A DNA stretch of 64,000 nt from Schmidtea nova (Eukaryota), in the NCBI GenBank assembly GCA_044892505.1, contig CM097883.1:185566001-185630000 (forward strand), given 5' to 3'. Below the pieces are notes generated by a model that had not been told where the DNA came from, searched no databases, and worked only from the letters and a program-made list of their open reading frames with translations. This document shows, piece by piece, positions 8,426 through 53,429 of this stretch. Made by a program: the position numbers and the translations under genes. The first letter of the stretch is position 1. The number at the start of each line of letters is the position of its first letter.

Positions 8426-8464
8426 CGCGATATATTTCGATTGTATAACAATCTTCTTCAGGCG
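8426..8464 (-). ncRNA. Minimal type I hammerhead ribozyme (mirror copy)
   Basis: Exact reverse complement of 11753-11791. Confidence 0.8.
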
Positions 8465-8798
8465 GGGCAATCAGGACAATCAATAATAAAATAGAAAATA
8501 TGCTAAAATTTAAACAAATTAATCAATAAAAATCATCTTAATACCATATCAAAATTTTAATTTAAAAATTAAAAAAATTTTTTTTTTTTTATTTTATTAC
8601 ACAAAAATCTTTTAAAATTTAAAATTTAATTAAAAACAAACATTATACATAGAACAACATACGTATTATTTTAAAAATAAAATAAAATTTAATAAAATTT
8701 TAACACAACATAAAATTTACAAATTTTAAAATTTAAAAAAAAAATTAAAATTTTTACAAACAAACAAACAAACATAATCCACAACATTCAACCTTCAG

Positions 8799-10580
8799 TT
8801 ACTTAAACACATTCAAAATATCAGTGGAACGGGCAACTTGATCATTTATTTTTGGATTAAAATATCTAATCAGCAATGCCTCACAAGTTACTCGTTCCCA
8901 ATAATTACTTAAACCCTTTGAAATAATTTTAAAATCAGAGATACCTATTTTTTTACTGACACATTTCCTAAAATGATCACTAATATTCGTCAATCCTTTT
9001 GGTCGGCAATGCTCAAGAACTCGGGTGCAGAGATGACGGGCAGTCTCTCCAATGTATGTGGCATTACACCCATTACATGAAAATTGATACACGAGCTCAG
9101 AACACAAACCAATTGGCGTTGGACATTTACTAGTGAACATACTGCTAACTTTGCAAGACATGGAAACAATCTTAAATTGATCCTTGTCTACATGTTTGAG
9201 AATCTTATGCTTAAATTCTCTGAAGCCCTCAGAATAAGGCAATACTAACACATATTTCGGCTCCGTGCGGTTAGATCGATTTTTGTCACTTTCCGAAATT
9301 AACACAGTCCTTTCATCAGGATCAATAGGTACCTCAGATTCAGACATACGCATACCAACATCATCAGATTTCAACATTAACTTATCCACGGTCACTTTTG
9401 TCATTTTCTCAAGAAAAGATTTAGAGTAACCGTTTTTAAGTAACAACTCAACCAATACATCAATACTTTTTACTGAATTCACAAACGTAGAAGATAGTGA
9501 CCAAGCACGAAACACTAATCCTCTCACCATATTCCTTTTATATTTAAATTCACAAAAACTCTCCGGCGTTGTATACAAACCAGTATCAGTCGACTTTCTG
9601 TATATTTCAGTCTCATAATGTTTCGATTTGCGTTGAATGAGTAAATCTAAAAACGCAATCGATGACATTTTTTCTTCTTCACAGGTGAATTTAATATTCT
9701 CATGCAGATCATTCATAAAATTTAAAAAAGGCATTACATGTTCACGACTCTCAAACACTAAAAAAATATCATCAACATACCGTTTGTACACAGTTGGTTT
9801 AACAAGATGGCATAAAGACATTTTCTTTTCCAAACTAGACATAAAGATGGAAGCCATAGTTGGGGCTAATGGAGAACCCATAGCAACACCATCCACTTGT
9901 TTATACCATTCATTGTTAAACAAAAAATTAACATTCGACGTTGCAAATTCAAGCAATTTGCGAAACGCAATTTTATCAACATTCTTTTGTTCAGATTCAT
10001 TGTCATTCCACATTTCACAACATAAATCAATTGTTTCCGCCAATGGAATGATTTCTGAGTTTGAATGTAAGGATAGCTTTGAATTTGCTTCATTTATTGC
10101 TGCGTTGAAGAAAAGTTCTGATGATGAAATTATGGTTTCGTTTGATGTGTGTAGTCTTTTCACTAATGTTCCATTGGCGGAAACAATTGATTTATGTTGT
10201 GAAATGTGGAATGACAATGAATCTGAACAAAAGAATGTTGATAAAATTGCGTTTCGCAAATTGCTTGAATTTGCAACGTCGAATGTTAATTTTTTGTTTA
10301 ACAATGAATGGTATAAACAAGTGGATGGTGTTGCTATGGGTTCTCCATTAGCCCCAACTATGGCTTCCATCTTTATGTCTAGTTTGGAAAAGAAAATGTC
10401 TTTATGCCATCTTGTTAAACCAACTGTGTACAAACGGTATGTTGATGATATTTTTTTAGTGTTTGAGAGTCGTGAACATGTAATGCCTTTTTTAAATTTT
10501 ATGAATGATCTGCATGAGAATATTAAATTCACCTGTGAAGAAGAAAAAATGTCATCGATTGCGTTTTTAGATTTACTCAT
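8799..10580 (-). CDS. Mirror Penelope RT-GIY-YIG ORF, lacking RT motif A at the fold-back junction
   Basis: GVAMGSPLAP, YVDD and YIGET...RVLEH are present; SFDVCSLFTNV is replaced by antisense spacer sequence. Confidence 0.7.
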   Translation of the reverse strand: MSKSKNAIDDIFSSSQVNLIFSCRSFIKFKKGITCSRLSNTKKISSTYRLYTVGLTRWHKDIFFSKLDIKMEAIVGANGEPIATPSTCLYHSLLNKKLTFDVANSSNLRNAILSTFFCSDSLSFHISQHKSIVSANGTLVKRLHTSNETIISSSELFFNAAINEANSKLSLHSNSEIIPLAETIDLCCEMWNDNESEQKNVDKIAFRKLLEFATSNVNFLFNNEWYKQVDGVAMGSPLAPTMASIFMSSLEKKMSLCHLVKPTVYKRYVDDIFLVFESREHVMPFLNFMNDLHENIKFTCEEEKMSSIAFLDLLIQRKSKHYETEIYRKSTDTGLYTTPESFCEFKYKRNMVRGLVFRAWSLSSTFVNSVKSIDVLVELLLKNGYSKSFLEKMTKVTVDKLMLKSDDVGMRMSESEVPIDPDERTVLISESDKNRSNRTEPKYVLVLPYSEGFREFKHKILKHVDKDQFKIVSMSCKVSSMFTSKCPTPIGLCSELVYQFSCNGCNATYIGETARHLCTRVLEHCRPKGLTNISDHFRKCVSKKIGISDFKIISKGLSNYWERVTCEALLIRYFNPKINDQVARSTDILNVFK

Positions 10581-11418
10581 TCAACGCAAATCGAAACATT
10601 ATGAGACTGAAATATACAGAAAGTCGACTGATACTGGTTTGTATACAACGCCGGAGAGTTTTTGTGAATTTAAATATAAAAGGAATATGGTGAGAGGATT
10701 AGTGTTTCGTGCTTGGTCACTATCTTCTACGTTTGTGAATTCAGTAAAAAGTATTGATGTATTGGTTGAGTTGTTACTTAAAAACGGTTACTCTAAATCT
10801 TTTCTTGAGAAAATGACAAAAGTGACCGTGGATAAGTTAATGTTGAAATCTGATGATGTTGGTATGCGTATGTCTGAATCTGAGGTAACTATTGATCCTG
10901 ATGAAAGGACTGTGTTAATTTCGGAAAGTGACAAAAATCGATCTAACCGCACGGAGCCGAAATATGTGTTAGTATTGCCTTATTCTGAGGGCTTCAGAGA
11001 ATTTAAGCATAAGATTCTCAAACATGTAGACAAGGATCAATTTAAGATTGTTTCCATGTCTTGCAAAGTTAGCAGTATGTTCACTAGTAAATGTCCAACG
11101 CCAATTGGTTTGTGTTCTGAGCTCGTGTATCAATTTTCATGTAATGGGTGTAATGCCACATACATTGGAGAGACTGCCCGTCATCTCTGCACCCGAGTTC
11201 TTGAGCATTGCCGACCAAAAGGATTGACGAATATTAGTGATCATTTTAGGAAATGTGTCAGTAAAAAAATAGGTATCTCTGATTTTAAAATTATTTCAAA
11301 GGGTTTAAGTAATTATTGGGAACGAGTAACTTGTGAGGCATTGCTGATTAGATATTTTAATCCAAAAATAAATGATCAAGTTGCCCGTTCCACTGATATT
11401 TTGAATGTGTTTAAGTAA
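9637..11418 (+). CDS. Penelope-like reverse transcriptase + GIY-YIG endonuclease (N-terminally truncated; genuine homology from ~10047)
   Basis: SFDVCSLFTNVP, GVAMGSPLAP, RYVDDIF, FLDL, YRKSTDTG, VYQFSCNGCNATYIGETARHLCTRVLEH. The first ~137 aa are antisense RT sequence. Confidence 0.9.
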   Translation: MSKSKNAIDDIFSSSQVNLIFSCRSFIKFKKGITCSRLSNTKKISSTYRLYTVGLTRWHKDIFFSKLDIKMEAIVGANGEPIATPSTCLYHSLLNKKLTFDVANSSNLRNAILSTFFCSDSLSFHISQHKSIVSANGMISEFECKDSFEFASFIAALKKSSDDEIMVSFDVCSLFTNVPLAETIDLCCEMWNDNESEQKNVDKIAFRKLLEFATSNVNFLFNNEWYKQVDGVAMGSPLAPTMASIFMSSLEKKMSLCHLVKPTVYKRYVDDIFLVFESREHVMPFLNFMNDLHENIKFTCEEEKMSSIAFLDLLIQRKSKHYETEIYRKSTDTGLYTTPESFCEFKYKRNMVRGLVFRAWSLSSTFVNSVKSIDVLVELLLKNGYSKSFLEKMTKVTVDKLMLKSDDVGMRMSESEVTIDPDERTVLISESDKNRSNRTEPKYVLVLPYSEGFREFKHKILKHVDKDQFKIVSMSCKVSSMFTSKCPTPIGLCSELVYQFSCNGCNATYIGETARHLCTRVLEHCRPKGLTNISDHFRKCVSKKIGISDFKIISKGLSNYWERVTCEALLIRYFNPKINDQVARSTDILNVFK

Positions 11419-11752
11419 CTGAAGGTTGAATGTTGTGGATTATGTTTGTTTGTTTGTTTGTAAAAATTTTAATTTTTTTTTTAAATTTTAAAATTTGTAA
11501 ATTTTATGTTGTGTTAAAATTTTATTAAATTTTATTTTATTTTTAAAATAATACGTATGTTGTTCTATGTATAATGTTTGTTTTTAATTAAATTTTAAAT
11601 TTTAAAAGATTTTTGTGTAATAAAATAAAAAAAAAAAAATTTTTTTAATTTTTAAATTAAAATTTTGATATGGTATTAAGATGATTTTTATTGATTAATT
11701 TGTTTAAATTTTAGCATATTTTCTATTTTATTATTGATTGTCCTGATTGCCC

Positions 11753-11791
11753 CGCCTGAAGAAGATTGTTATACAATCGAAATATATCGCG
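11753..11791 (+). ncRNA. Minimal type I hammerhead ribozyme in the Penelope 3' UTR/pseudo-LTR
   Basis: CGC-CTGAAGA-A-GATTG ttata CAATC-GAAA-TATA-TC^GCG: complete core, 5-bp stem II, 3-bp stem I, palindromic stem III (ATATAT). Confidence 0.85.
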
Positions 11792-11868
11792 TTGATGTTG
11801 AATTTACTGAGTTGGCGTTTTTCTATAATTAAATCATTGCCACGTTTTTTTGATTAAATATTATTATT

Positions 11869-12346: not shown

Positions 12347-12841
12347 TTATATGTATATCACATGATATTCATCAATATTAATACCACAAGATTCACACTT
12401 ATCAATATTTTTTAAACATTTTGAACAAATAATGACATGTCCACAAGGTAAATATAAAATGCCAACTCTGTTGATATTACATATTGAACATGTGAGAAAT
12501 CTTTGTTTGGTTTCTTCCAATTTATTGGTTACATTTACCTCTAAAATATCCACATTCAACATGAAAGTTCGAATAATAGTACGATATTTTCCAAGACGAA
12601 ATTCCATACATGACCAGAAAATGTAATTCAAATTGAATTCAGTAATATCGATATCATTAAGAATCATAATAAAACTGGATAATTTCATCATAGGTTTATC
12701 ATATCCGAATGATTCTGTTAAACCAATAATTAATTTATTATTAAAGGATTTGAATAATTTTGAAAGAATGTCGATATCGCATTTCTCAATCGAAGTTAAA
12801 AGGTCATCAAGTATTAAAAATGATTGGATCCAATTGTCCAA
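12347..12841 (-). CDS. Intronless 164-aa protein with C-terminal IAP/MDM2-type C3HC4 RING finger (putative E3 ligase)
   Basis: CSICNINRVGILYLPCGHVIICSKCLKNIDKCESCGINIDEYHVIYI*; all ligands intact; RING ends at the C-terminus as in IAPs; no BIR seen. Confidence 0.8.
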   Translation of the reverse strand: MDNWIQSFLILDDLLTSIEKCDIDILSKLFKSFNNKLIIGLTESFGYDKPMMKLSSFIMILNDIDITEFNLNYIFWSCMEFRLGKYRTIIRTFMLNVDILEVNVTNKLEETKQRFLTCSICNINRVGILYLPCGHVIICSKCLKNIDKCESCGINIDEYHVIYI

Positions 12842-13204
12842 AGTAATGAAATTATCTGTAACCTAGTTTAAAATAATTAATTGAAATATATATATTTTTA
12901 AAACTAACTTTATTTGTTTCTTTATTCCTTTACGTCAATCAATATTATTTACAAGTTGTATTTATATTGCAAAAATCAACCAATTTAATAACCAACCATT
13001 TTATTGACCAACCAATGATTGAAAGTTTTGCTAAACTGATACATTGAAATGATGATAAGGGACATTGAAAATTAGGTAACAGTATATTTATTATTAGAAA
13101 TATGTTCAAGTAATGAGCTTTTGCACATAAAAACCATCACAGAATAGGTTCTGCTACTAGGGTTTTGATCACAATGTTCTGCTACTAAATGTTCTGTCAC
13201 TATG

Positions 13205-14452: not shown

Positions 14453-15033
14453 ATGTCATTTTCATTGTATGAACTTGCTCGAAATCGTGGAACTAGTAGG
14501 AGAATTCCGTGTATTATTGCTGCTGGAGTTGTTATTTCAACTGGAGAATTCCTGAGAATTGACAGATGCCCCGGAATCCTCTCGAAAGTCCATTTGAGTG
14601 TTGATTATCTTGTTACGGACATGAATAAATATTATTATTTGGTTTTTGCTCGAATCAAAAATGGTCAGTTATATTACAAACGACAAAATGCGAAATTGCA
14701 ATTTCTCTGCCATTCACAGCTTCATAGAATTCACGAAACTTTTTGTAACGCTTGTTGTTTACAAACAAATTTATGATTGCCTGAAAGACAGTGAAGACAC
14801 ATCCAGACAGATTGTTTTGAAGGAAATTATGAAAAGCTTCCTATTAGATACAGTATTATTTTTCTTTTGCTTTTCCTTCCACAGTGTAATTCAGTTTTTG
14901 TCTGAATTCAATGATAATATTGAGTATTCCATTACGGATAAAGGGTATCGAATAGGCATGGCCATGATTGTAATGTATGCTGTTGTTTATCTTTACATTT
15001 CAATGATCATGAACAATAAAATTCTTAAAAACG
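14453..15033 (+). pseudogene. Intronless, frameshifted ORF of an unknown membrane protein, truncated by a gap
   Basis: ORFs 14450 and 14646 overlap in different frames; hydrophobic segments LFFFCFSFHSVIQFL and IGMAMIVMYAVVYLYISMIM. Confidence 0.35.
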
Positions 15034-15365
15034 NNNNNNNNNNNNNNNNNNNNNNNNNNNNNNNNNNNNNNNNNNNNNNNNNNNNNNNNNNNNNNNNNNN
15101 NNNNNNNNNNNNNNNNNNNNNNNNNNNNNNNNNNNNNNNNNNNNNNNNNNNNNNNNNNNNNNNNNNNNNNNNNNNNNNNNNNNNNNNNNNNNNNNNNNNN
15201 NNNNNNNNNNNNNNNNNNNNNNNNNNNNNNNNNNNNNNNNNNNNNNNNNNNNNNNNNNNNNNNNNNNNNNNNNNNNNNNNNNNNNNNNNNNNNNNNNNNN
15301 NNNNNNNNNNNNNNNNNNNNNNNNNNNNNNNNNNNNNNNNNNNNNNNNNNNNNNNNNNNNNNNNN

Positions 15366-18300
15366 TGTCATCATTTTTTAACAGCTCTACCACATCACGT
15401 ACAGTCCGCACTCCTCGTCATTGATTCCGATGATCCATTTCATCTAGCAAAAATCACTGATAAGTTGGTCACACGACCACCTGTCCGAAACGTACCAACT
15501 ATCATCGCACCAGTTTCCGACTCTTCAATGCAGGAAGAGATATTTTCTTTGACAGAAACTGTTGATGAGATACTCAAATCATCTCAACCAAATGCATGCC
15601 CCCAAAGAAACGACAAGTCGAATTCTTTTCCCCTTCTGACTTGTTATTCTCAAAAGAAATTCTTTTCCGAAGCCAGAACATGTCATATCGGATGTTCATG
15701 GCCAAACCCTCCCTTCCACTTTGAGAATCATTCCTATTTGGATCTATAACAACATTTCCGGTTTACACGCCAAAAATGTCTTGCAGGTTGCACTTTGGTA
15801 GCCGTCCCTCAAATAAATCACATGACAAAAATCATTCCAATTCTTCACAAAAAAACTAGCTCCGCTGTCTGTCAACCCTGGATTTTCAGGTGGCGTCCTT
15901 GCAATCAACAATATCTTCACTGTTGAAGCAAACGTCGATTCCAGCTCATCTATTCATTTTCTCGTCGATTCCTGCTCGTCACTTTCAATCCTTCCAACAA
16001 CTTTCACACTAGATTTAAAATCTCCATTCACTGTCTTAGCCGCCAACAGCACGCCGATTCAATTTTTGGGAACAAAAAACTTTCATTCATAATACCAACA
16101 TTAGAATCAACTTTCACTCATATTTTCCACATAGCAGACACGATCCACTCAATACTAGGCTCTGATTTCTTATGCAAACAATCCATCATGGTAGATTGCA
16201 AAACCCGCAAGTTGTTCACTCTAAAACAAGACATCGACTATACATCAAAAAGTTCATCGTCGAATGTAGCATCAGTCTCTACTCAGATATCTCCAGTGAC
16301 ACAACTAAACTCGATTCAACAGATTTCCACGACGGAAAGCACTCAACACACATTAGACATCAACCAATTAGCCAATCCAGATACAATGTACGACATGATC
16401 AAATTAATTACTAACAAATATCCAAATTTCATCACTAAATCAGCTACCATACCACCCACTACCCTGTCGACTCACTATATTCACACATTGTCATGCATAC
16501 CACAACACAATTGAGCCAGACCTCTTTCTTCCACCAAACTCGACGCAGTCAAAGCCGAATTCGTTTTTCTAGAAAACGCAGGCATTATACGTCGTTCATC
16601 TTTACCATGGGCTTCATCAGTACACGCAGTCACAAAGAAAGACGGATCATTTAGACCTTGCGAAGATTATCGACAACTTAATCAAGTAACAGTGCACGAT
16701 GCATACCCAATGCCAATAATCAAAGATGTAATAACACGCTTGTCTCAATCTACTGTGTTCTCAACTATAGATCTTTCGAAAGCATACCACCAATTTACCA
16801 TCCATATCGATGACGTCCCCAAAATTACCGTCATGTTCATACATGTTCATGCCTTTTGGTCTCAGAAATGCAGCTCAGTCCTTAAAGCGTTTCATGGATA
16901 CAATTTTTCGTGACGTTCCTCACACTTTCGCATACCTCAACGATATCATCATTGAGTCACCTGATCGAGGTAGTCACGCAGATGATTTACACACGGTCCT
17001 TGACTTATCGAACCGCTACAATTTACATATAAATGTGAATAAATGTATTTTTTTTCAAGAACTCGTCAGATTCCTCGTCACATACTTTCATCTACTGGTT
17101 GTGAACCTCTACCCGAAAGACTCGACGTAATCCGCAGCTTTCTTCTGCCAATCACCATGACACAACTACGTAGCTTTTTAGGCATCGTCAACTTCTGCCA
17201 CAGATTCATTAAAAACGCATCTTACATAACAACACCTCTTTCAACACTGAATACAGGGAAAAGGAATTCTGTTATCAATTGGTCCGACACAACACGTGAC
17301 TCATTCAACAAAGTCAAAGACGCTCTAGCAAAGATAAACACTCTTCGCAACCCGCGTCATGAACTCCCATTCACTCTGACAACTGATGCATCCAATATTG
17401 CTACAGGCGCAGTTTTTCACCAAATTAAGGACGGTATCTTACTTCCAATTGAATTTTTTTCGAGGAGATTCTCGTTGGCAGAGTCAAAGTACAGTGCATT
17501 CGACAGAGAATTACTTGCTATCTTTTTAGCAGTCAAACATTTCAGTCACATTTAGAAAGAAGACAATTCACAATCTTCACCGACCACAAACCTCTCATCC
17601 ACTGCCTCACCATGAAAGACCCATCGAACAGAGTACATCATCAGATAACATACCTATCAACTTTCGACATTAAGTTCATTCACGTTTCAGGTAAAAATAA
17701 CGTAGTCGCCGATTATCTTTCTAGAAACATTTCCTCATTTCCACACTCCAACAAATTCTTCGTTCAACAACGCCAAATACAGCTGATCTTGCCCGTTTCA
17801 AAGACTCGCTCGAGATAATAGACGGTATACATTACGACACAACGAATAAAAACACTCTTAGACCAATTTTACACTCGTCACTCAGAAAAGAAGCATTCTT
17901 CGCGATTCATAATATACATCACCCAGGAATTAAGTCCACATACCACCTCACACGACAAAACCTCACCTGGTTCTTGTTATTCAAAGACATAAAACATTGG
18001 GTTTCGGAATGTACAGGCTACCAACAACACAAAATGAACAAACATACTAAACCACCAATCACACAATTCCCGACTGGTTCAAGATTAGGCATACTCCACA
18101 TCGACTTAGTAGGGAAACCTTTCGCCGACGACGGATTCTGCTAAATCCTAACAATGATTGATAGGAAAACACGGTGGCTCAAAGCTGTCACAATTTCCGA
18201 CATCACTGCAAAAACGGTCGCTGCAATACACGCTTTAATATCCACTTGGTTTTCACGTTATCGAATTCCAACCGCCATAATCACAAATCAATAAACACAA

Positions 18301-19111
18301 TTCGAATCAGATCTTTTCGAACATTTGACCACCAGCCTCGGCATCAAACATTTACGAACCAGCTCATATCACCCACAAACAAAAGGTCTCGTAGAACGCG
18401 CCCACCGTACTTTTAAGTCATTCTTCAGAATACTCTCAACGACAACTTCATGGACCAAATCATTACCATTCGTCTTGTTTGGTTGACACAACACACACAA
18501 CCGATTAAGTGGTGTGTCACCTGCACAACTTTTGTTCGGTTCAAACACCTTCATGCCCAACGAACTCATAGACCTCCAGAATGACTCCTCCAGAATGACT
18601 CCAGAGATCAACCTTACCCGCAAACATTTTCTGAGTCATGATACAAACCCATTTTTCACATACTTTACTTCATACAAACCGTTTGTACCACAATCACTTT
18701 CCTCCGCCACCCACGCTTGGATGAAAACAAGTGACTAAAACTTCAAACTTAGATACAAAGGTCCTTTTCGCATTATCGAACTATACAAAAATACGGCAAA
18801 ACTAGAAATCGATAACAACTACGTTATGTTCAATCTATCGCGATTAAAACCATCCTTTTGCACCCTTGAGTATGATGAATCACCAAATTATCATATCACA
18901 AAAGAGGATATTATAGAGGAAGACATTTTAGAAGACACAGAACAACTGATCACTCTTACAAACACGCCTGATTCCTTACGTCCTCAAGACAACCCGCCAT
19001 TCTTTTCAAGACGAACACGCAAACTCCCTCAATACCTCTCCGATTATGACCTTCAGTGACTTACTCAGCACCAAAGCCCCTTTTTTAGCTTAGAGACGCT
19101 CCGCGTACTTC
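15366..19111 (+). mobile_element. Decayed Gypsy/Ty3 internal region (gag end, PR, RT, RNase H, IN)
   Basis: FLVDSCSSLSILP (PR); PWASSVHAVTKKDGSFR..DYRQLN, IDLSKAYHQ, MPFGLRNA, YLNDII (RT); TDASN..YSAFDRELLA, TDHKPL (RH); HHPG, HIDLVG (IN). Many frameshifts. Ends at the 16-mer ACGCTCCGCGTACTTC shared with the pre-PPT of the 42364 element. Confidence 0.93.
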
Positions 19112-38254: not shown

Positions 38255-39174
38255 GAATTGAATGTTGATGGACGGTTTGTATTTTTTTATGTAAAAAGTC
38301 TCGGAAGCTAATCTTTGTAATGAATTTTTGAATCATTCTTGTAGAATCTGGCATTTTGTTTCTTCTATAGATGGAGTTGTTTTATGTACTTTCTCCCAGT
38401 GTTCGTAATAATTACTGATTTTGTTTTTAGTGTGTTCATTAAGTCGGGTGCGAAAAGTTCTATGTGTTTCTCCTATGTAAGTAGCGTCACATTTTTGACA
38501 AGAAAGTTTATATACTATATTTTTGGAAAAGCAAAAGCATCGGGTTGTGGAACGGCAAAGACATTTATGTTTGGAGATGTTGGAAATTGGTGGCTTTCGG
38601 AGTTGTGATTTTAACGGTGCGGAGGTTATGAACGTTGGACGGATGTGGATAGGCAAATCTGTTTGATTAAAAATGTTGGTGATTTTGTTGGCTGTAGTGT
38701 CATTTAGGAAAGGTAATCTTAGATATGTTGTGTGTTTGTTATTGTTATTGTGTTTCTGGCGTTTTCTATTGTTGCGTTTATTGTGGTATGGTTCGTTAAG
38801 GAAGTGTTTCTTTACAAAGTCTTCAGGGTATCCATTTTGGAGGAATCGTATTTTGAAGTTTTCTAATGTTTCTTGTATTTTGTTTGAGTCTGAACAGTTT
38901 CTTATGGCTCTTTTTCTTTCTCCTATTAGTAATGCGATTTTGCGTTGAAGTGGAACGTGGCTTTTCCATGGGAGGATATGACCACTATGTAAACTTTTAC
39001 AATATAGCTCGGTGTTTGCATTTAGTGTATCTTGGCTTTTTTTGAAACTTACTATGGTATCTAAAATCGGTATTTTACCTTCTGTGTTCGGTGTTTCAAA
39101 AGTGAATTGTATGTTGGTGTTAGTAGAATTTGCGTGTGATAGGATTTGATTGAGAGGGATTGTGGAGACTATGA

Positions 39175-39175
<1 letters not shown>
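38255..39175 (-). mobile_element. Second Penelope-like element, 3' fragment (RT thumb + GIY-YIG), decayed
   Basis: NIQFTFE...IPILDT; VYKLSCQKCDATYIGETHRTFRTRLNEH; YIKKYKPSINIQ. Truncated at (TA)n. Confidence 0.85.
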
Positions 39176-39251
<76 letters not shown>

Positions 39252-41428
39252 ATTAAAGTTCTATATATATATAAATATTATACTAATATATAAAAAACGG
39301 AGGCACTACAAAATTATTGAATAAAAAAACACCGTATTCAGATTTTATTGGCTTTGATCTTTTATTTCTGTATAATTCATACGTTAACATTAGAGAAGTG
39401 GATTTTCCAAAATACGAATTATACAATATTTACTTGTCATAATAAATAATTACAAAATATTATATTATTCTTATCTTTGGAATTTTTTAATGAAAATTAT
39501 GAAATAAATTAAGTTATTGCAAATTTATTATTTGTACTGCTTTGCTCTTTCAAAAAATTTTCTCAGCACTTATAATCATCCATACGCTATAGCGAGCTCA
39601 TTTCTCTCAGCGTATAAAAACGCCCATAGTACTCAAATGTTAAATCATAGTAATTTATATGATGCAGCATAGTGAAACTTTAACAAAAATGATTATAGGT
39701 TATTAATTATAAATCTGGGGTCTCCTGCTACAAATAATGGATATCTTACTTACAGAAGTTGAAGCCCTAATTTTTCGCGCTTATCAACACGTTTATAGCG
39801 TCAATAGAATGCAAATATAGATATTGAACGCAAGGAAAACTTAAACCAGGTAAATATTAACATATCATTAAATAGAATTTTTCAAATGGGACCATCTCAA
39901 TTTCGGAGCTTCCACACATAAGAGGTGGTAAAATGTCCATTATTTCAACTTTGATTTTTATGATAGACACCAAAAAATATTGTAAGTCCAAAATTTCTAG
40001 TTAAGTCACCGCTCTACCTTTCGAAATTTTAATGTTCCATTTCCTAGTTTCAAAATATATTTTTATATTTAGATTTTAAAAAACAAATTTTGTAGATTTT
40101 CAATTTTAAAAAATATTATTGAAACTTAAAAAATGGAGTGAGATATGTTATAATGTTTTAAAATATTTATAATTCATAATTTACTAATAATTATAAGTAG
40201 TATATTAATATTAATATATTTAATAAATAATTTTGCCTGTAATTTAATGTCTATAACATAAATATGGAAATATTTCATCATCTTTATTGAAACTGAAAGT
40301 ATTTTTTTGAATAAATAATTATTAATAATATTACATCATTAACAGAAGAAATATGTCATCGAATTTTTTTATTATTTCACTACGCTAGTTTGTAAATCGC
40401 ACTTTTCTTGTTTATATTTTGAAAAGTGTGGCAAAATTTTGGTTGCAACATTTTAATTATAAGTTTTGAACATCATATCTTCTTAGTCAGTGACTTAGGT
40501 CTGTGATGTAGTTCTTTCTAATTCATAATAACGTGAAAAATATGTTCATATGTGAGACAGGCGGGTGTTACAGCACGCTAATTGGGTTATAAAATAAAAA
40601 ATGACATTATGCGAACATCCGGAAATTAATATTTAAAGTGTTGAGCTAAAGCAAAATCCAAATAAGTTTGTTTAATTGAAGCGGTTACATAGCATGTAAA
40701 CAGCACGCAATAAGTGAATAAAAAATGCTATCAGAAAATACCAAATAAACACTAATAGCATGAAAACCCAACACATTAGTAGACAGGTGAGTACACTACA
40801 GAACAAATGAAATTAAGTAATCGATGAGTTAGCTAATCAAAATCGAGTGACCCTCTGGGTATTTTTTTACACACACCCCCATACTTCTTTTACATACACC
40901 CATAATATTTTTTACACACAATGAGTCATCAAATTTTATTTTTAAGGTCATTTTAAGGCCAAGGTCAAATTTTCAAAAATTCAAGAACTGATTATCAATA
41001 TTTATTATAAATACATTAAACGATTCTAGCACTGTTGATTTTCTAAATCGGAGACACTGCTTCTTTTGGTTCTACTTTATAGACTTGAATCGATATATCA
41101 ATAAACCAATTTTCATTATCCATAAATTAAGCAGATTAAAATGAGTCATGAAATTAAGTTTTCCTGTTGTTGATAAATATTGTTTCATTGCAAGATAATT
41201 TTTTGTTGATTTTCATCAAAACTTTATTGATTGCACCGATATCTTCTTTATAAAGCTGACTGATTAAGTTTGGATATTGCAATGTGGACAGCTTTACTGG
41301 ATATGAGCACTTGAATTGGGTTTCATTTACCAAGAAAAACATTTGATAATCGTGAAACATTTGAACCGGTCTGAAATCATTTTTGGTTTGAATTGATTTG
41401 GTTTCGTTCTTTACTGGTTTCATTTTAA

Positions 41429-41668: not shown

Positions 41669-42726
41669 TTAAATGAATCTTTAATTGGACTCAATTTGAT
41701 AAAAAGATTTTGCATTTTTGATATTTTATATGAAATTATTGTATGTTTATATCTTTATTATTGGTTTTTTTGCACTTTTAATGTATCGGACTTTTGTTGT
41801 ATTAGATTTTTTGTTGATATTATTATTATTATCATTAATATAATTAATTTTATTATCATAATTATCTTTTTGTTTCACCGTTGATTTTTTTTAATATTAC
41901 TATCAATAATTTCCATAAGACTATATATCCAAAAATATTTTTTTAAACGAGTACAAAATAATTTTGATCTATTGTTTTATGGAAATTATTTATATTGATA
42001 TTATTATTATTTAATCCATTAGGTTGAATCACGGTCGCTAACCACAACGACTTATATGCTTCAATAAAAAAACTAAAGATAAAAACAAACTCATTTAAAA
42101 TTAAAATCTTGTAAACTGATTGACTTCATTATCATCAATAAATTCTGGTACTTAAAATCGTCAAAATTTACCTATAGAGATCTATTTAAGTGTAATTAAA
42201 TCTAAATATAATTATTATAATAAGTTATTAAAAATATAAATAATGGAAACGATAACATGAAATTAAATTGATATAAAACATAACTTATAAAGTATCGTTA
42301 ACGCGCTACTTCACATAATTTAAACATTAGTATGAAATAATTTTTAACAACTTTAAATACAATTGTAGTGCCTCCGTTATTTATATATAAGTACAATATT
42401 TTTATATACAGTAATTTAATTAAATATTATATCTTTATTTTTATATATTAAAATCAAATATGGATTTATTTATAAAAAACAAAATTGTTTAAATCACCAA
42501 AAAACATTCTTTTTAGCTGGATTCAAAAATAAAGCAAGCAAGAAATAAACACTCAATCATCTAAAAGAAGAAATAAACACTCAAAGCATCACACACTCCA
42601 AGCACCACGCACTCCAATCATCAAAGCACCAAGCGCTCAAAGCACCACGCATTCATAGTAACCAAGCACTCCAATCACTTTAAGGAAGACATAATCAATT
42701 GACAATTACATTTGAATAATAATAAA

Positions 42727-43116
42727 ATGTTTTACTATGTTATAGCCTTATTCTATCTTATTTCAGCAGCTAAAAATGGTGTCAGAAATCCTCCTGATGA
42801 CAGTCAAACAGGACTGTTTACAAAGCAACAAATGAATCAATTACCACGACAAATGACTCAAATAATTCCAATAAACATTCGGTTTAGAGAAAATTCCGCC
42901 GAAAATAGCTCTTTACAATTCATGCAGGCTCAGAGGAATAGACAAAGCCAAATGCCACATGCAAGAAGTGGTTATCAAAATTTTCACAATCCTCACATTA
43001 CATTTGCAAATCCAACCGGGAACTTTCGACAAGAAAGACCTCAAATGAATGAATTCAAGTTTCAAGAAATTCAAAATTCAAGAATGATCCAAGTTGTCAC
43101 AAATTGTGGCCAATGA
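42727..43116 (+). CDS. ORF0: 129-aa Q/N-rich ORF with a signal-peptide-like N-terminus
   Basis: MFYYVIALFYLISAAKN...; N-terminal segment conserved in the diverged copy at 37680-37729(-). Confidence 0.4.
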   Translation: MFYYVIALFYLISAAKNGVRNPPDDSQTGLFTKQQMNQLPRQMTQIIPINIRFRENSAENSSLQFMQAQRNRQSQMPHARSGYQNFHNPHITFANPTGNFRQERPQMNEFKFQEIQNSRMIQVVTNCGQ

Positions 43117-43463
43117 TGAAGCTGATGCCCAACAATGTGAATCCAAATAACCGGTGTTCTTTCCACCATAAATTCAATAAGCCGAACGAGCACAATCGGC
43201 ATAACTCCTACAATAATCGGTCATTTATTAGGAAGAACAAAAGAATCAAATATGTCAATGATCAATCTTCAGTAATCAATCTTCAACATCCACACGGCGA
43301 GTCATATTTTAAATTTATACTATTAATTAATTATTTATTATACACATTCCTCTTAAATTGCATAATATTATATATAATACCTATTATAATTATAAAATTT
43401 TATGCTGCACAATTTTTCTACTCTCCCATTAAATTCTATGCTAATAACCCCACTCAATCCACC

Positions 43464-44576
43464 ATGTACAACAACGATTCCTTCGCCACTTCCCCAACAT
43501 ATGTACTAACGCGTTTCAACCACAAAACACGCCAAATCCCCATTTTCACGGATTTGCGCACTGATATCGCCACCTCTCATCTGCTTAATAGGAATGATTT
43601 TTACATGTCGTACAACGGTTTCCCAGTTTCACCCAATGCTATAATAGAAATTCATTGCCGCGTTTTAGGAGGCGTCCGAACCACTACAGAACCGTCTTAT
43701 CTATCCACGTCACGCCAAATTTTGTTCTTTTTGGATCCCGACGGAACACCCTTGTCGTGGTTCCGCATTTTCGAATCGCGCACGTCTTCTTTTCCGAAAT
43801 CATGCGCCGATTACCTACTCGACAGCCTACCATCTGAGCTGATAGCCGAGCTTGCACCAAAAATAGCCGACGCGCTTTACGCAGACAACCCGTACGATGA
43901 TCTCAAATCACTGATAGTGTCAAAATACACCTCATCACAAACCCAAGCTCTCACAAAGCTTTTGGCACCACAAAATTACTCAGGACAACAGCCAAGCCTA
44001 TTCCTAGAACAGATTGCCCGCTCCAACGACACAGCCATTCCAGATCTGTCCAAAAACACGCAACTTTTAAAACACCAAATCTTCTCAGCACTTCTATATA
44101 ATCTACAAACCTCCCTCGCATTGGTAGACTCTGAAGACCCGTACCATCTTGCTAAAATAGCTTATCGTATTTATGCACTTCAACCCCATAAACCGCGCGC
44201 TGATAATTACACACCACCACCGCCACCTTCCATTGTCAACGCAACACATTCACCCGAAAACCACTACACCTGCAACGTCACAAAGTATTCCAACTATACA
44301 CCTCCGTTACAGCAAGCACAACGCCCCAATCATCCACCTGTTACACTCACACAGAATGTACAACCAAGTAGCAGTGCACCACTAATTTGCTATTTCCACA
44401 GCCGATTCAAAAAACATTCACAGAAATGCTGCATTGGTTGCGCTTCCGAATTCCACAACCCTCATAACCCAGTCATTCCAATCTGTATCCACCACCACCT
44501 GTTCAAGAACGAAGCCAAATCGTGTATCGAAGGGTGTACATGGCACAAGACCAGTTACCATCATGCAAAAAACTAA
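43464..44576 (+). CDS. gag: Ubiquitin-like domain-Gag fusion (370 aa from the ACCATG at 43464)
   Basis: First 70 aa end IEIHCRVLGG. Then Gypsy capsid-like FFLDPDGTPLSWFRIFE...YDDLKSLI...QQPSLFL and two C-terminal CYFH..F...CCIGC / CIHH.LF..CIEGC Cys-His motifs. Confidence 0.75.
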   Translation: MYNNDSFATSPTYVLTRFNHKTRQIPIFTDLRTDIATSHLLNRNDFYMSYNGFPVSPNAIIEIHCRVLGGVRTTTEPSYLSTSRQILFFLDPDGTPLSWFRIFESRTSSFPKSCADYLLDSLPSELIAELAPKIADALYADNPYDDLKSLIVSKYTSSQTQALTKLLAPQNYSGQQPSLFLEQIARSNDTAIPDLSKNTQLLKHQIFSALLYNLQTSLALVDSEDPYHLAKIAYRIYALQPHKPRADNYTPPPPPSIVNATHSPENHYTCNVTKYSNYTPPLQQAQRPNHPPVTLTQNVQPSSSAPLICYFHSRFKKHSQKCCIGCASEFHNPHNPVIPICIHHHLFKNEAKSCIEGCTWHKTSYHHAKN

Positions 44577-44654
44577 CTGAGTCGTCGGATATTCTTGGAC
44601 GCTCCGATGACTTCCTGCCAGTGAACACCTCTTCTCTCAGCAAACCACGTCCAA
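44567..44654 (+). promoter_or_regulatory. -1 programmed ribosomal frameshift signal (A AAA AAC + stem-loop/pseudoknot)
   Basis: Heptamer 44567-44573 in the gag frame directly before TAA; 6-nt spacer; 10-bp stem 44580-89/44603-12; loop TTGGACG complementary to CGTCCAA at 44648-54; downstream ORF is in the -1 frame. Confidence 0.75.
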
Positions 44655-45301
44655 CGTACACAATATTAACTCCGCCAGCAAGCACCATCTCAGAAACAAC
44701 CGCTACTCTCTCCACAGTATTATTTCCTCACACGACACCACCACCAATAGCAATACAAGCACCAACACCAGAACAAGAACCAATCAGCACACCTTGCACA
44801 ACACTAGCAACAACGCCAACAACATTACCCGACACACCTCACAGAGCACCACCTGCATCACTACCAGCAGCAACATTCACAATTCCATCAGACGCACCAC
44901 TATTAATACCAGAAGCACCGCTCACCTTTTCCGACGACGAAACCCGCACAGACTACACACATATTCTAGCACAGCCGCCACAAACCACATCTCCGTCTCC
45001 ATTGTCACCAACTACCACCGCCACCATAAATAAGGCAACACTAACTACACCACCCTTAAACAGAATCCCTGAAAATTTCACCATCAACGCCCAACCGTTC
45101 GAAGAATACGGTCAAATCAAACAATGCACAATAACATTTCTCGCAGATACAGACTCATCATATTCAATCCTACCCACCACCTTCACCGCGGACACACCCT
45201 GCTCATCCTCTGCCATAGCCACGAACGGTCCAGGTATAAAGCTATCGGGTGCAAAAACAATCGAGTTTCGCCTACCAGGTTTTTTTTACTCCGATCCTTG
45301 A
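44574..45301 (+). pseudogene. Truncated pol: P/T-rich spacer plus aspartic protease remnant
   Basis: FLADTDSSYSILP (DTG changed to DTD), followed by deletion to the pre-PPT region. Confidence 0.75.
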
Positions 45302-45352
45302 ATCCGTTTTTGCATTTAACCTATACGCTCCGCGTACTTCGGAGGGGGCTAT

Positions 45353-46075
45353 TGTAGTGCCTCGGTTATTTATATATAAGTACAATATTTTTATATAAAG
45401 TAATTTAATTAAATATTATATCTTTATTTTTATATATTAAAATCAAATATGAATTTATTTATAAAAAACAAAATTGTTTAAATCACCAAAAAATATTCTT
45501 TTTAGCTGGATTCAAAAATAAAGCAAGCAAGAAATAAACACTCAATCATCTAAAAGAAGAAATAAACACTCAATCATCTAAAAGAAGAAATAAACACTCA
45601 AAGCATCACACACTCCAAGCAACACGCACTCAAAGCACCACGCACTCCAATCATCAAAGCACCAATCACTCAAAGCTCCACGCACTCCAATCACTCAAAG
45701 CACCAAGCGCTTAAAGCACCACGCATTCATAGCAACCAAGCACTCCAATCATTAAAGCACCAAGCACTCAAAGGATCACACACTCCAAGCACCACGCACT
45801 CCAATCAGCAAAGCACCAATCACTCAAAGCACCACGCACTCCAATCATCAAAGAATCAATCACTCAAAGCTCCACGCACTCCAAACCATTAAAGCACCAT
45901 GCAATCCAAGCACTCGAAGCACTCGAAGCACAACGTACTCCAAGCACTCCAAGCACCACGCACTCCAATCATTAAAGCACCACGAACTCCAAGCACTCAG
46001 AACTCCAAACATTCAATCACTCAAAGCAACACACACTTCAATTACCAAGCACTCCACCACTGCGATGGCTCTACA
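45353..46075 (+). repeat. 3' LTR with internal AAGCACCACGCACTCC-type repeat expansion
   Basis: Follows the PPT; TGTAG...CTACA inverted ends (3' end inferred). Confidence 0.7.
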
Positions 46076-47341
46076 TACCCTCCGCGCACTTCGGCGGGGG
46101 CCATTCTAGTGCCTCCGATAATAAATATTTAAATATTTATTTAATTATTTATTAAAAAAAATATAACTTGTTTTAATAACAAGTTATTTTAGAAAAGGAG
46201 AAATTTAAAATTAGAAGCACAAGACGTTATTTTGAAGAACCAATTTTTTAAAATTTGTATTGGATTGAATAAATTTTTACTTTATATTGTAGTTTTTTCA
46301 ACATCCCTACAACAATATAAATTAACCACAATTTTTCATAATATAAATTAAACACAAAAATTTAATTAACAAAATAAAATTAATTATATTATTAACATAA
46401 ATGATAATAAATTTATTTTACCTCGTGTTGATTAATATAATACACGAAGATTCTTAAATTTAGTTATTTTGATAATCTTTATGATATCTATGATTGCTAA
46501 TTCTAAAGTTAAATCTAAATTTAAAATAATTAAAACTTACAATTTGTATATTATCAGTTCTTGATCAGAACAAGGTTCATGTGTAGAAACTTATTTGGAT
46601 TAATTTGATGAAATTATTAAAATAGAACTGGTAAGTCAACGCAATGAATTAAAATGTAGAAATCGCTGTTTTATTGTGAATATTTATTGGGTGGGTTGTG
46701 AATAATATTTTACGTATTTTATGTGTTAATATGGATGACCTTAAGATATATTTAAGTGAAAACAAACTTGTTTAGTGAAAATACACATGTTTAGTGAAAA
46801 CACATCTCTTTAGTATTTTTATGATGGTTTTAGTACAGAACATGGTCAATTTCAGTGTTTTTTGAGTACCAGTTAACCAAAACTTATTTGTCAAAGTAAA
46901 TCAATGTGGTTTATATGTATAAATTATTACTTACACGCAAATTTTAAAAATAAAGACATACTTTTTCTCAAAAGGTCAAAATTTTATAGATAAAACAGTG
47001 TAATTAAAGATTGGATAGGGTGGATTTCAAATGTGCGGAGTTACACAAACCTGTATGACATGTCGTTGTATGACCTACAGTTGCATTACAATATCTGTGT
47101 TGTCGATGCACATGAGATGTAGTCAAGTTGCAATAGGGATTCAATCAAATTACAAAAGAGATACAAGTTGTAATTCATGACTAATACATACACACAAATC
47201 TTGGAAAATATAAATAAATACTTGAATATTTATGATTATTAATAAAATGAAAGAAATATTTATAATAAATTTGATTGATGGTCTGTTATCAAAAGAAAAG
47301 AATGATATTAAGCACATGTGCTCCATCTTGTCTTCTCTTTT

Positions 47342-49726: not shown

Positions 49727-50600
49727 ATGTCGAAATGAAATACAAAATATAAAACATTAAAAGTTGAAGATAAATTAAAAGATATTCTAGAAATTGAAGA
49801 GGGAAAGACTCAAAAAGATGTGGCTGCAAAGTTTCAAGTGAAACCTAACACGTTGTCTACAATTTACAAGAATCGTTCAAATTTGCAAAAAATTTTACAA
49901 TGTAAATCTTGCAATGGCGAAAAGGAAGCGCATGAGGGCAGCAAAATTTGAAAAAGTGGATGAGGCTATAAAAACATTTGTTTCCGAATACAGAAATAGC
50001 AATATTCCAATTAATGAGATTATGATTCAACAAAAGACACAAAAATATGGGGAATCCTTAAATTGTGAAGACTTTAAAGCAAGCAACGGGTGGATTAATC
50101 GCTTCAAGAAAAAGATCTGCGATGAAGTGGCGCTGTTTAACTTGAGATGCCGTGGAGGCCGAAACAAAGTGTTGCTACCGATTGGATCAATATTACATTA
50201 AAACCCCTGCTAAGAAAGTACGACTAAAATTAAATTTCTAATGGAAATGAAACCGGCCTTTATTATAAATGCCTACCTGGAAAAACATTTGTATTAAATA
50301 GAGATAAGTGTCTAAAAGGCAAATTCAGTAAGGAGCGAATTACGATAATGCTCTGTTCAAATATGTCTGGCGCTGACAAGATTACATCTTTGGTAATAGG
50401 GAGATCAAAGCGACTGCATTGCTTCAAAAATATAAAATCACTTCCAGTTGAATATAGTTTCAATCAAAAAACATGGATGAACGTTACGATTTTCGAAAAA
50501 TGGCTGTTTAAATTAGATGAAAAAAAAACAAAATTGAAAAATATTGTTTTTTTTGACAATTTCTCTGCATACAAAAAATATTTTCTACAAAAGTTACAAA
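49727..50600 (+). pseudogene. Tigger/pogo (CENP-B-like) transposase pseudogene
   Basis: HTH-psq-like KTQKDVAAKFQVKPNTLSTI; FKASNGWINRFKK; NETGL; KERITIMLCSNMSG; NQKTWMN; FDNFSAY. Frameshifted. Confidence 0.9.
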
Positions 50601-53429
50601 ATATTCGACAGAATTTTGAAGATTCTTTAATTCAGTTCTTCACATCATATACTTTTACGTGAACAAGCTAAATATGTTCAAAATTTTAAAAACCGATTGC
50701 AAAGAAAAGGTTTACAGAGTATTATTTTTATTTTTTATTTCAATATTTTTCAATTCTTTAATTAGATTATTTTTTTATATTATTTTTTTAAGTCAACCTG
50801 TATAACCACCAAGTCATCAAAATAAATTGTTATTTATTTGTTTAATTTTTGTTTGGCATTATTAAAATTTAATAACCAGCTCGCCGAGTTTTTATTGAAA
50901 ACAGAGCCGGCAGCAAGTTACCGCTGGCTGTGAAACATTAAATATCTCAAAATAAAGGACTGTGGCTTATATCAAATCACAATTTACCATATTTATTCAA
51001 AATTTTAAAATTCATTAAAGAAAATCATATAATTTTATGGAAATTTTTTCATTTTAGTTTTTCAAACTTTTTAATTGTATTTTGAATTTTAGCATTTAAT
51101 TTCTATGGAAAAAAATTGTTTCAATCTTTAATATTCTTCATCTTTGATTTTTATTCAATTTCATTTTTTTCAATCAATTAATAAAAAATAATTTTTCTCT
51201 ATTTTTTGCAAATAACAGTTCCTAGAACTTTATTTTGAATAAAAAAAATTAATTTCATTTATTGTCTGAAAAATGAAAATAAAAGAAATATATTTACTAT
51301 AAACTATTCATTAATGTCTTTTGTATTTTTGGAGGATAATTCTATTTTTATTAAAAATCAATATGTTGCACTTTTCGAACACTATCGGCTCTTTTATAAC
51401 TTTAAGTCAAATATTGCAATATGAACAAATTATTAACATTCAAAAAAATCGACATTTACTTCATGAAGTAGTTATAATGCCCATCATATGAAAGTCGCAT
51501 TTTTTTAATTTACTAAGTAATACATACATTAAAAAGTTATTCTTTTAATAGAGATATGGCCAACCAAAATCGAATGAAGAGTCAAAAATTCTAAAATTGC
51601 ATGAGCCGCATGTTTGTGTATAAAGCTTGTCGAGGTTACTAAAAAGGATTACTGATATTGATTTTGGATAAGTTAAAAATCAAAGGAAAATCAAATAACA
51701 TTTTCATTTACAATGAAAATAATGTTCTTGTTTTAAATTAAAAATTTCTTTTGATTTTAAGTATATTTTAAAAATATTTATAAAGTGTTTCGTGAGCCAC
51801 GGATTAGCCAACCCTGCTTTAATATAATGTGTACTTTACATCACTCTTTCCATATTTTACAAAAATAAAATTCAATAATTTCATGATAAATTTATTTTGT
51901 AATCAATGTTTATGAGTTCTGGTACGAAATTATATACACATTAAGACACAATAATTAAGAATTTAATATTGATGGCGACCGACAGACATACAGTGGCGTT
52001 TTATTTATATAGCTAATAACTGTTTTATGCTTGTTTCTTGTTTGTTGGATTTTAGATTTTCCTTGACGTTTCCGATTTTGCAGAAATGTCAAAATTTATG
52101 CGTACGCTTAGCGATCCTATGAAAAAAATATTGTGTAACATTTTTCGTTATTTTTCACAAGTTTTATTAACAACCTCAGAAATTTTATTTTTTAGTTACA
52201 TCAGATTTAAGAGTTTTTATAAGTATACTTCGCGAGTTGCTTTTATAATTTTACCTGTAATTAAACACTGAAATCAAAATAGTATGTGTTAATTTATTAT
52301 ATTAAAAATTCACTTAAATAGCAGTGGTAGAATTAAATTAGAGTATAATTAATGAATATGACAGATATAGTCGCCAACTTGTTAATCATAATATTATATG
52401 TAAGTTGCAGCTTTTTGCATTTTAAATGTTCACTTTTTTATTTTTATTGTTTTCAATAAATTTTAATTATTTAATTAATTTGTAATTCCTTATTGAAAGC
52501 AAGAACTCAGTGATTTGAATTTTTCACAGATGTAAAGTTAGTTTCCTTAAAAGTTCAGAAAACTTTATTTTTTTTCGTTTTTTTAAAGAAAATTAACTTT
52601 GAATTTGAAAAAAAATAATTTAGTAAAAGATTGATATGTGAAAAAAATTGGTAATATTTATTGTTGCCAAAATTTCAGCAAATTTCAGTTCTGAATCAGA
52701 TATTGCTAATAATAATTACGTATTGCGTTTTTGATGTTATGAATGAGCATTGTATGTAATTATCAACTTGCATTAGCACACTTGCAAAAAGGTTTTATAT
52801 GTTATTTTTTGTCAAAAGCCTATATTATAATATATATAAGATATCAAATATAAGATATATTTAAAAGAATATCTTAAAATATTTCTGATAATGATAATTA
52901 TTTATCAACTTAAATGAAAATTATCTTAACAAAATATTAATTTAATAAAACATTAATAAAATGCATACAATCTAACGTAGATTTCGATTGGTTCAATTAT
53001 TTAAAAGCTATTTACATTCATTCAGTTTTATTAATGAAAAACGGTTTTCACTTTTTAAACAAATTGAAATTTAAAAGTGACTTTTTATTCCAAATGCACG
53101 TCAAAGTAATTTTTATTTGTTTATCTTTTAATATTTTTAAAGTAAAGTAATTAATAAATTTTGATTATTGTTTATGTATGTATTATTGAATGGTGATCGC
53201 CAACGCAATCGGAAACATCTGGAAATTGAAAAATAATAATATTATAATTATAATAATATTCTTATTTTTATCTCAGACGTCTACTTCATTTTCATTTAAT
53301 TAAACTTAAATCAACCGGAATTAAACATTGCGTGGGCGTAATAATTAATATCAGGATCAATATAATAATTATTATTATTATTTTTATTATCATTATTATT
53401 AAAGTTATTATTTATTATTATTGATAATA

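Follow-up and report, generated by a model that had tools for sequence, protein, structure and literature searches.

A ubiquitin-like domain ending in Gly-Gly between a variable leader and Gag in a Ty3/Gypsy retrotransposon family of Schmidtea nova

In the cellular fusion precursors Ub-eS31, Ub-eL40 and FUBI-eS30, a ubiquitin-like domain (Ubl) ending in Gly-Gly precedes a structural nucleic-acid-binding protein, from which deubiquitinases remove it. A comparable arrangement occurs in pestiviruses, where insertions of cellular ubiquitin before NS3 are described in BVDV Osloss, CP1 and CP Rit (PMC8310069, PMC13517609), and where cellular UCHs cut S27a-ubiquitin from NS3 in the cytopathic strain CP Rit (PMC8310069). 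Among mobile elements, PMC2836005 deals with OTU/Ulp1 proteases in DNA transposons, and the CsRn1 clade of Gypsy elements is defined in PMC2582038 by a CX2HX9CX3C Gag knuckle and by LTR ends of TGT...AAA or ATA.

Here we describe an element from a 64,000-nucleotide stretch of Schmidtea nova DNA (the window, by which we mean the whole stretch analysed), in whose family a leader, a Ubl, Gly-Gly and Gag follow one another in a single frame. The first-pass annotation, made from the sequence of the window alone, did not recognise its Ubl-Gag as a described Gypsy architecture. We found no description of the order leader-Ubl-GG-Gag in the literature searched, with Repbase Reports, subscription journals and supplements outside its scope; the word 'ubiquitin' is absent from PMC6238403 and PMC11410931.

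The element and its family

The window element consists of a 5' LTR, a primer site, gag, an A-AAA-AAC site, a shortened pol, a purine tract and a rearranged 3' LTR (Table 1), and the first 222 nt of its two LTRs are 98.2% identical. Its primer tRNA may be tRNA-Leu; a single pattern search for the primer tRNA gene found none. The annotation had read an ATG at 43464 within ACCATG, 70 codons running to ...IEIHCRVLGG at 43673 and a Gypsy Gag following in frame, and all of this was confirmed, the full context of the ATG being CCACC-ATG. The Gag that follows the Ubl is 300 aa long and matches PF23055 (DUF7041) at E 3e-5 and 24.7 bits, under the 28-bit cut-off. At the gag stop, A-AAA-AAC is likely to direct a -1 frameshift from gag into pol; the hairpin downstream of it scored no better than shuffles (z -1.1). 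Neither RT nor integrase is present in the pol of the window copy, which is therefore non-autonomous, and we conclude that it is a decayed member of its family. Beyond the expanded 3' LTR, a second polypurine tract with an LTR-start-like motif lies at 46080-46125.

Table 1. Features of the Ubl-Gag element in the window
Feature	Position	Strand	Remarks
5' LTR	42364..42774	+	ends TGT...AAA; contains AATAAA at 42721 and leader ATG at 42727
Primer-binding site TGGTGTCAGAA	42777..42787	+	leader frame runs through
Leader ORF, type A1	42727..43463	+	brief hydrophobic start, then Gln/Asn-rich cargo and a long hydrophobic segment
Hydrophobic segment, predicted membrane, adjoining Ubl	43305..43427	+	Kyte-Doolittle peak 2.5; AT-rich codons
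Internal Met and Ubl ending RVLGG	43464..43673	+	predicted beta-grasp fold from 43497; gap near 43630
Gly-Gly codons, putative cleavage site GG/V	43668..43673	+	conserved across copies and diverged proteins
Gag	43674..44576	+	flexible linker followed by DUF7041 capsid-like helical domain and two CX2HX9CX3C knuckles
Gag knuckles CX2HX9CX3C	about 44388-44441 and 44484-44537	+	two knuckles
A-AAA-AAC slippery heptamer at gag stop, with 3' hairpin	44567..44613	+	heptamer in 26/30 copies
Shortened pol	44468..45301	+	Pro/Thr-rich stretch and half protease, D-T-D replacing D-T-G (45137-45157)
Polypurine tract	45341..45352	+	recognised from sequence
3' LTR	45353..46070	+	expanded by short tandem repeats; without normal end, end position approximate

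The family has at least 150 copies in the genome at 92-96% identity over residues 1-170 (out of 6082 candidates), and we examined 110 of these, picked by their likeness to residues 1-170. RT and integrase are present in five full copies and a D-T-G protease in 46 of the 110, the autonomous copies carrying DTG, YLDD and integrase; in one of them (L115), the DTG protease is followed by RVT_1 (392-549), RNase H (614-742) and integrase (818-953). In the full copies, the LTR pairs are 97-100% identical, five of seven have a 5-bp target-site duplication with a sixth visible (it is unambiguous in L115, L118 and L120), and the LTRs end in TGT...AAA in five and TGT...ACA in two. With an LTR pair, primer site, polypurine tract, target-site duplication and pol order all present, the family belongs to the Ty3/Gypsy LTR retrotransposons. 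Judged by its Gag, it is a CsRn1-related variant of this group, one from which two defining CsRn1 features are absent.

A non-autonomous lineage with the D-T-D half protease makes up 48 of the 110 copies (L001-L030, L126-L205), and it is found with both main leader types, which points to recombination between leader and pol variants. The non-autonomous form also occurs as head-to-tail arrays with shared LTRs (L116 and L117), whose units of about 3.0 and 3.5 kb are 99-100% identical.

The window holds several other features. Another element with a Gag of the same group, likewise decayed, occupies about 14600-19000 (+), with a hydrophobic leader-like frame from 14625, the C-terminal half of the capsid and a knuckle at 15369-15797 (E 3e-25) and RNase H at 17043-17552; no Ubl is visible in it, part of its frame reading N. 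At 8408-11809, two mirror-image 593-aa frames with an RT match lie in a perfect inverted repeat of 1641 nt with 120 nt between its arms, possibly an assembly fold-back. The minus strand carries a 171-aa frame with a C3HC4 RING finger (12350-12862) and a 314-aa frame without a Pfam match (38336-39277), which by eye we take to be like a Penelope-like RT tail and endonuclease and which is flanked by a brief inverted match to the LTR start of the window element (39223-39311). A broken DDE_1 transposase lies at 49842-50662 (+).

The ubiquitin-like domain and its Gly-Gly tail

The Ubl had been given a length of exactly 70 aa, which is true of the window copy alone: in the other 109 of the 110 copies it has 76 aa, so that the window domain is six residues shorter than in every other copy examined, through a deletion private to this copy. 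AlphaFold and Foldseek had been proposed as a check on an order of strands and helix drawn by eye, and a beta-grasp with ubiquitin-family matches is indeed predicted. For the 70 aa of the window, AlphaFold2 puts these elements in the places foreseen (E12-18, E21-27, H31-38, E46-50 and E61-65, with pLDDT of 74-95 over residues 11-70), and in a Foldseek search the model comes closest to ISG15, SUMO and ubiquitin-type chains, with E-values no better than 0.007. The 76-aa family form, modelled with 43 aligned relatives, is predicted as a beta-grasp at pLDDT 92-96 over residues 11-70 and gives 17 Foldseek matches at E<=0.001, with ISG15, ubiquitin and SUMO at the top. VIA gave this model Z-scores of up to 8.3, a middling value, and rmsd of 2.0-2.1 over 65-66 residues, all top rows being ubiquitin-fold chains. 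Identity between the family Ubl and its best structural matches is just 12-20%.

As single sequences, neither the 70- nor the 76-aa domain has a match in Pfam or the PDB, and the ESM Atlas leads for the region all score under 0.9, several of them ubiquitin- or SUMO-like. The profile of the Ubl family, however, matches ubiquitin from end to end at about E 1e-10 per monomer, and the window domain matches a Ubl profile built without the window family at E 4e-11. The Pfam ubiquitin cut-off is passed by six of 41 relatives, among which P0016 scores 81.5 bits over 72/72 positions. The predicted fold, the full-length profile match and the Pfam scores of the relatives together indicate that the Ubl is descended from ubiquitin and has drifted far from it.

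In the same genome, three further Gag families have a Ubl, with tails LKGG, LRGG and LRGG, and four DUF7041 families were seen without one. The 150 best matches from a profile search of 1.84 billion representatives, joined with P0005, make 151 proteins, and the Ubl precedes the capsid in 40 of these, with one more starting inside the tail. Into a capsid tree we took 45 Ubl rows and 44 of the 101 non-Ubl rows; 40 Ubl rows fall within one group of 45 (SH-aLRT 92), four form a group of their own (99) and one stands apart. Within the main group, five rows lack a Ubl, perhaps because their gene calls are shortened. The tree requires eight changes, of which four are forced by strong branches, and the Ubl was possibly gained more than once. 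The Ubl marks a deep group of Gags, and most related Gags appear to have none. A metagenome scan with the second Ubl group found a Ubl in one of 80 kept loci (of 406), that one being the query's own contig, and the 151 pattern matches from a scan of viral contigs included no relative.

Conservation of GG among family copies was a further point on which the first reading could be checked. GG is retained in 108 of the 110 copies, a figure inflated by the choice of copies for likeness to residues 1-170, and in all of 43 diverged Ubl-Gag proteins, whose Ubls have a median identity of 18%. These 43 are related, so that their counts are not independent and p-values on them are overstated. In them, P4 is L, I or V in 42 and P5 is R or K in 33, and GG is followed by a small residue or Met (S, M, A, T, G or V) in 37 of them, where the linker background would be 0.38, and by Pro in none; an R-L-x-G-G tail and a small residue after GG are conserved across the alignment. 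Since a GG lying 10-75 residues ahead of the capsid Trp had served to select the Ubl proteins, we tested for circularity with a tail-less Ubl profile, which found no GG-less Ubl in the other 111 of the 151 proteins. The distance from GG to the capsid Trp (median 33 aa) is close to that from Met to the capsid Trp in 96 Ubl-less Gags (median 41 aa), which places GG about where ordinary Gags start. P0028, possibly a shortened gene call, has Met at the exact position of GG/S in its near twin P0043.

A tail on an intact fold, followed by a residue other than Pro and then by a flexible linker, is the sequence pattern of a ubiquitin-fusion precursor. The annotation had suggested that a host deubiquitinase matures Gag, and the signatures of such a processing site are all present. 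We consider it probable that a host deubiquitinase cuts leader-Ubl-GG-Gag after GG, freeing Gag with a fixed N-terminus. Against such a cut, the family Ubl has no Ile44 patch, which many deubiquitinases contact too, and the divergence of the Ubl from ubiquitin may block recognition. It could then remain attached to Gag, either as a spacer or to tether it to the membrane, giving a membrane-anchored Gag that would resemble myristoylated retroviral Gag or glyco-Gag, or be removed by the element's own aspartic protease, which the autonomous copies possess in its D-T-G form (the 46 of 110 above). We regard either outcome as very unlikely: the invariant GG with R-L at P5-P4 fits the deubiquitinase motif R-L-x-G-G and not the hydrophobic sites of retropepsins, the residue after GG resembles an N-terminus, and uncleaved Ubl domains are not known to retain GG. 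A Pfam-type domain search found no deubiquitinase domain in the element's Pol.

The annotation also raised the alternative that the Ubl is a product in its own right: once freed, it would act within the ubiquitin system of the host, either conjugated as a modifier or engaging ubiquitin readers as a decoy. The cut would leave a free C-terminal GG, the Arg72-equivalent is R or K in 33 of the 43 proteins, some members such as P0016 are near ubiquitin, and Burro elements, in the account of their domains in PMC6431247, hold several ubiquitin- and apoptosis-related domains. However, such an Ubl would remain joined to the variable leader, and its surfaces diverge faster than the capsid (median identity 18% vs 29%). 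The hydrophobic core is retained across the 43 proteins, and the surface for E1/E2 and readers is not kept: at the positions that we take to correspond to Ile44, Arg42 and Val70 in ubiquitin numbering, Ile is found in 3 (T, S or C in 32), Arg in 5 (an aromatic residue in 28) and Val in 3. This alternative is thus weak, and we hold it to be highly improbable. P0067 and P0133, which fall outside the main group, likewise have an aromatic residue for Arg42 and a small one for Ile44, which suggests selection away from ubiquitin readers.

The leader, its cargo and a proposed mechanism

The first-pass annotation placed the Ubl at the N-terminus. We find instead that it sits inside a longer ORF that starts in the 5' LTR and contains captured host fragments, and it is this variable, apparently host-derived leader, set apart from Gag by the Ubl, that is the main point and had been missed. 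The reason is that the leader of the window copy is frameshifted near 43.06 kb, the stop-free frame containing its Ubl-Gag starting at 43053, whereas in most copies leader and Ubl-Gag are in frame. Intact copies have the ATG that starts this frame within the 5' LTR, some 230-475 codons ahead of the Ubl, and the frame then crosses the primer site.

Several properties of this frame argue that the leader is coding. Of 95 copies, 61 keep the frame open all the way between primer site and Ubl, compared with 71 for a Ubl-Gag stretch of equal length; shuffled leaders contain 15-23 stops, and 0/2000 shuffles were open for each of two copies. Eight of 11 recurrent leader lengths keep one phase, and no frameshift in the leader is common to three or more copies, one split in-frame gap excepted. 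Counting variants common to at least three copies, the N/S ratio is 0.28 for the Ubl (p 0.003), 0.20 for the capsid, 0.35 for the Ig cargo (p 0.011) and 0.50 for the A1 cargo (p 0.046). It is not significant for the eL6 part (0.54, p 0.08), and in the hydrophobic segments, at 0.9-1.0 on few variants, amino-acid constraint was not detected. Selection on the leader is weaker than on Gag, and the variants are few. Leaders of 60-886 aa, as machine gene calls, precede the Ubl in 26 of 40 related proteins, and 11 of these 26 contain a primer-site-like peptide (mean for shuffles 0.45), which is found in none of the Gag parts.

The ATG at 43464 offers another start. If Gag translation began at this Met, the Ubl would be a removable tag at the N-terminus that serves expression or folding, and the leader would be a separate or incidental product. 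Of 110 copies, 108 retain the ATG with its strong CCACC context, the 76 aa from Met to GG equal the length of ubiquitin, the AT-rich stretch upstream could house an internal promoter, and the hydrophobic segment there is the part of the leader in which constraint escaped detection. However, a Met occurs within 90 aa of GG in only 11 of the 43 proteins, three of these rows having been cut at Met. The fold begins at residue 12, which makes the match in length coincidental, and the frame-preserving leader lengths together with the lack of shared frameshifts require read-through from the leader into Ubl-Gag. We therefore judge initiation at this Met unlikely as the whole explanation, and consider that the window family may also start translation there, alongside translation of the leader. 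Splicing into the Ubl ATG was rejected, since no AG, and hence no nearby splice acceptor, occurs between about 43300 and 43463.

What the leader holds differs between copies. In one LTR type, three in-frame blocks are 86-94% identical to the host eL6 gene and lack its 44-nt GT-AG intron, which implies capture from a spliced mRNA. Between primer site and hydrophobic segment, the window family has at least four unrelated cargos: the Gln/Asn-rich type of the window copy (A1), an Ig array that shares 61% identity with a multi-Ig protein, a second, unrelated Ig array and an Asn/Ser-rich stretch. A search of the ESM Atlas with the A1 leader gave no usable match. A second family of the same genome has SAPS in its leader, and host domains were recognised in the leaders of six of 41 database relatives (H2A, tubulin, 5'-nucleotidase, CNOT1 with Rrp44-CSD, an SCC3 repeat and RING). 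The leaders of P0011 and P0043, which have no Pfam match, we take by eye to resemble fragments of Hsp90 and LRRC47. From these similarities, we conclude that leader cargo has been captured from the host and swapped.

Under the reading that we prefer, with cleavage by a host deubiquitinase, the single frame leader-Ubl-GG-Gag would be translated as one protein from the LTR ATG and cut after Gly-Gly by a host enzyme of the USP/UCH type, as in ubiquitin-ribosomal precursors and pestivirus Ub-NS3. The freed Gag would keep the same N-terminus whatever the leader holds, and because the cut fixes that N-terminus, the 5' end would be free to take up host sequence, presumably by template switching onto co-packaged mRNAs; the cut site would let it swap cargo with capsid assembly unharmed. 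In the window family, hydrophobic segments flank the cargo, so that the leader half is predicted to form a membrane protein, with Ubl-Gag on the cytosolic side and the cargo on the outside, though the hydrophobicity may simply reflect AT-rich codons.

A bolder version, which we offer tentatively and with more doubt than confidence, is that Ubl-GG evolved as a gene-capture adaptor. Together with the slot that follows the primer site, the 5' LTR would then form an exchangeable cassette for pieces of host mRNA, displayed here between two membrane segments (twice as Ig-superfamily cargo), and the whole would be an undescribed accessory-protein system of LTR elements, possibly gained repeatedly, acting on host cell surfaces or in cell-to-cell transfer of particles.

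Gag normally needs a fixed N-terminus, and an LTR element is thereby limited in what it can place upstream. If our reading is right, a spacer of ubiquitin cut by the host lifts this limit and explains how elements carrying in-frame host fragments stay highly active. The retrotransposon life cycle would then depend on host deubiquitinases, and leader-Ubl-Gag elements would be a ready source of chimeric membrane proteins. Additionally, the Ubls, which range from near-ubiquitin down to 18% identity, would amount to a natural mutational scan of what deubiquitinases need.

Comparison with known systems

Within Gypsy, the closest elements are those of the CsRn1 clade (CsRn1, PwRn1 and AgCR), which, as described in PMC2582038, share with the window family the CHCC knuckle, TGT...AAA ends, a -1 gag/pol overlap, the order PR-RT-RH-IN and the GPY motif. 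In that account, however, the clade has a tRNA-Trp primer site (TGGTGA...) and a 4-bp target duplication, where the window family has TGGTGTCAGAA and 5 bp (PMC2582038). The window family also doubles the knuckle and has leader-Ubl-GG before Gag, unlike the clade as characterised there. The planarian giants Burro and GYPSM1, going by the description of their architecture in PMC6431247, likewise have a Gypsy polyprotein with host-like domains, including a Ubi2/SUMO-like one. In that description, Burro exceeds 25 kb with a giant ORF and has an N-terminal Gag with CCHC knuckles and its Ubl downstream, between MATH and BCL2, with no processing role given to the Ubl, whereas the window family measures 3-6.5 kb, with CHCC knuckles and leader-Ubl before Gag (PMC6431247). 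Identity with Burro/GYPSM1 was accordingly rejected on element size, knuckle type and Ubl position as reported there.

LTR-mediated retroposition (Tan et al. 2016) is similar in that host mRNAs enter LTR elements by template switch, often in frame and from several genes (PMC5131818). The retrocopies described there interrupt the element (PMC5131818), whereas in Ubl-Gag elements the pieces lie in the LTR or after the primer site, gag-pol is kept, and the captured sequence is in frame with Gag and amplified. With the 2A-like skipping peptides of non-LTR elements, the likeness is that an upstream peptide is parted from a retrotransposon protein within one ORF, by co-translational skipping in LINEs (PMC3708506) and by predicted proteolysis after the Ubl in the LTR elements described here.

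In the pestiviruses, as described in PMC8310069 and PMC13517609, a captured ubiquitin likewise lies inside a polyprotein, sometimes with a host fragment (S27a) ahead of it, and the downstream protein gets an authentic N-terminus. There, the insertions are sporadic, the ubiquitin is near-identical, the carrier is an RNA virus and cleavage has been demonstrated. In the retrotransposons described here, the Ubl is a fixed component of a deep group and has diverged to about 18% identity, an exchangeable leader stands ahead of it, and the predicted cleavage would free a capsid protein. If the cut takes place as we propose, Ubl-Gag elements have converged on the same end as the ubiquitin insertions of pestiviruses and the 2A peptides of LINEs. 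The ubiquitin-ribosomal precursors share the Ubl-GG fusion itself, and their chains appear among the structure and profile matches of the Ubl; in those precursors, however, ubiquitin forms the true N-terminus of a host protein, and here the Ubl is internal and mobile.
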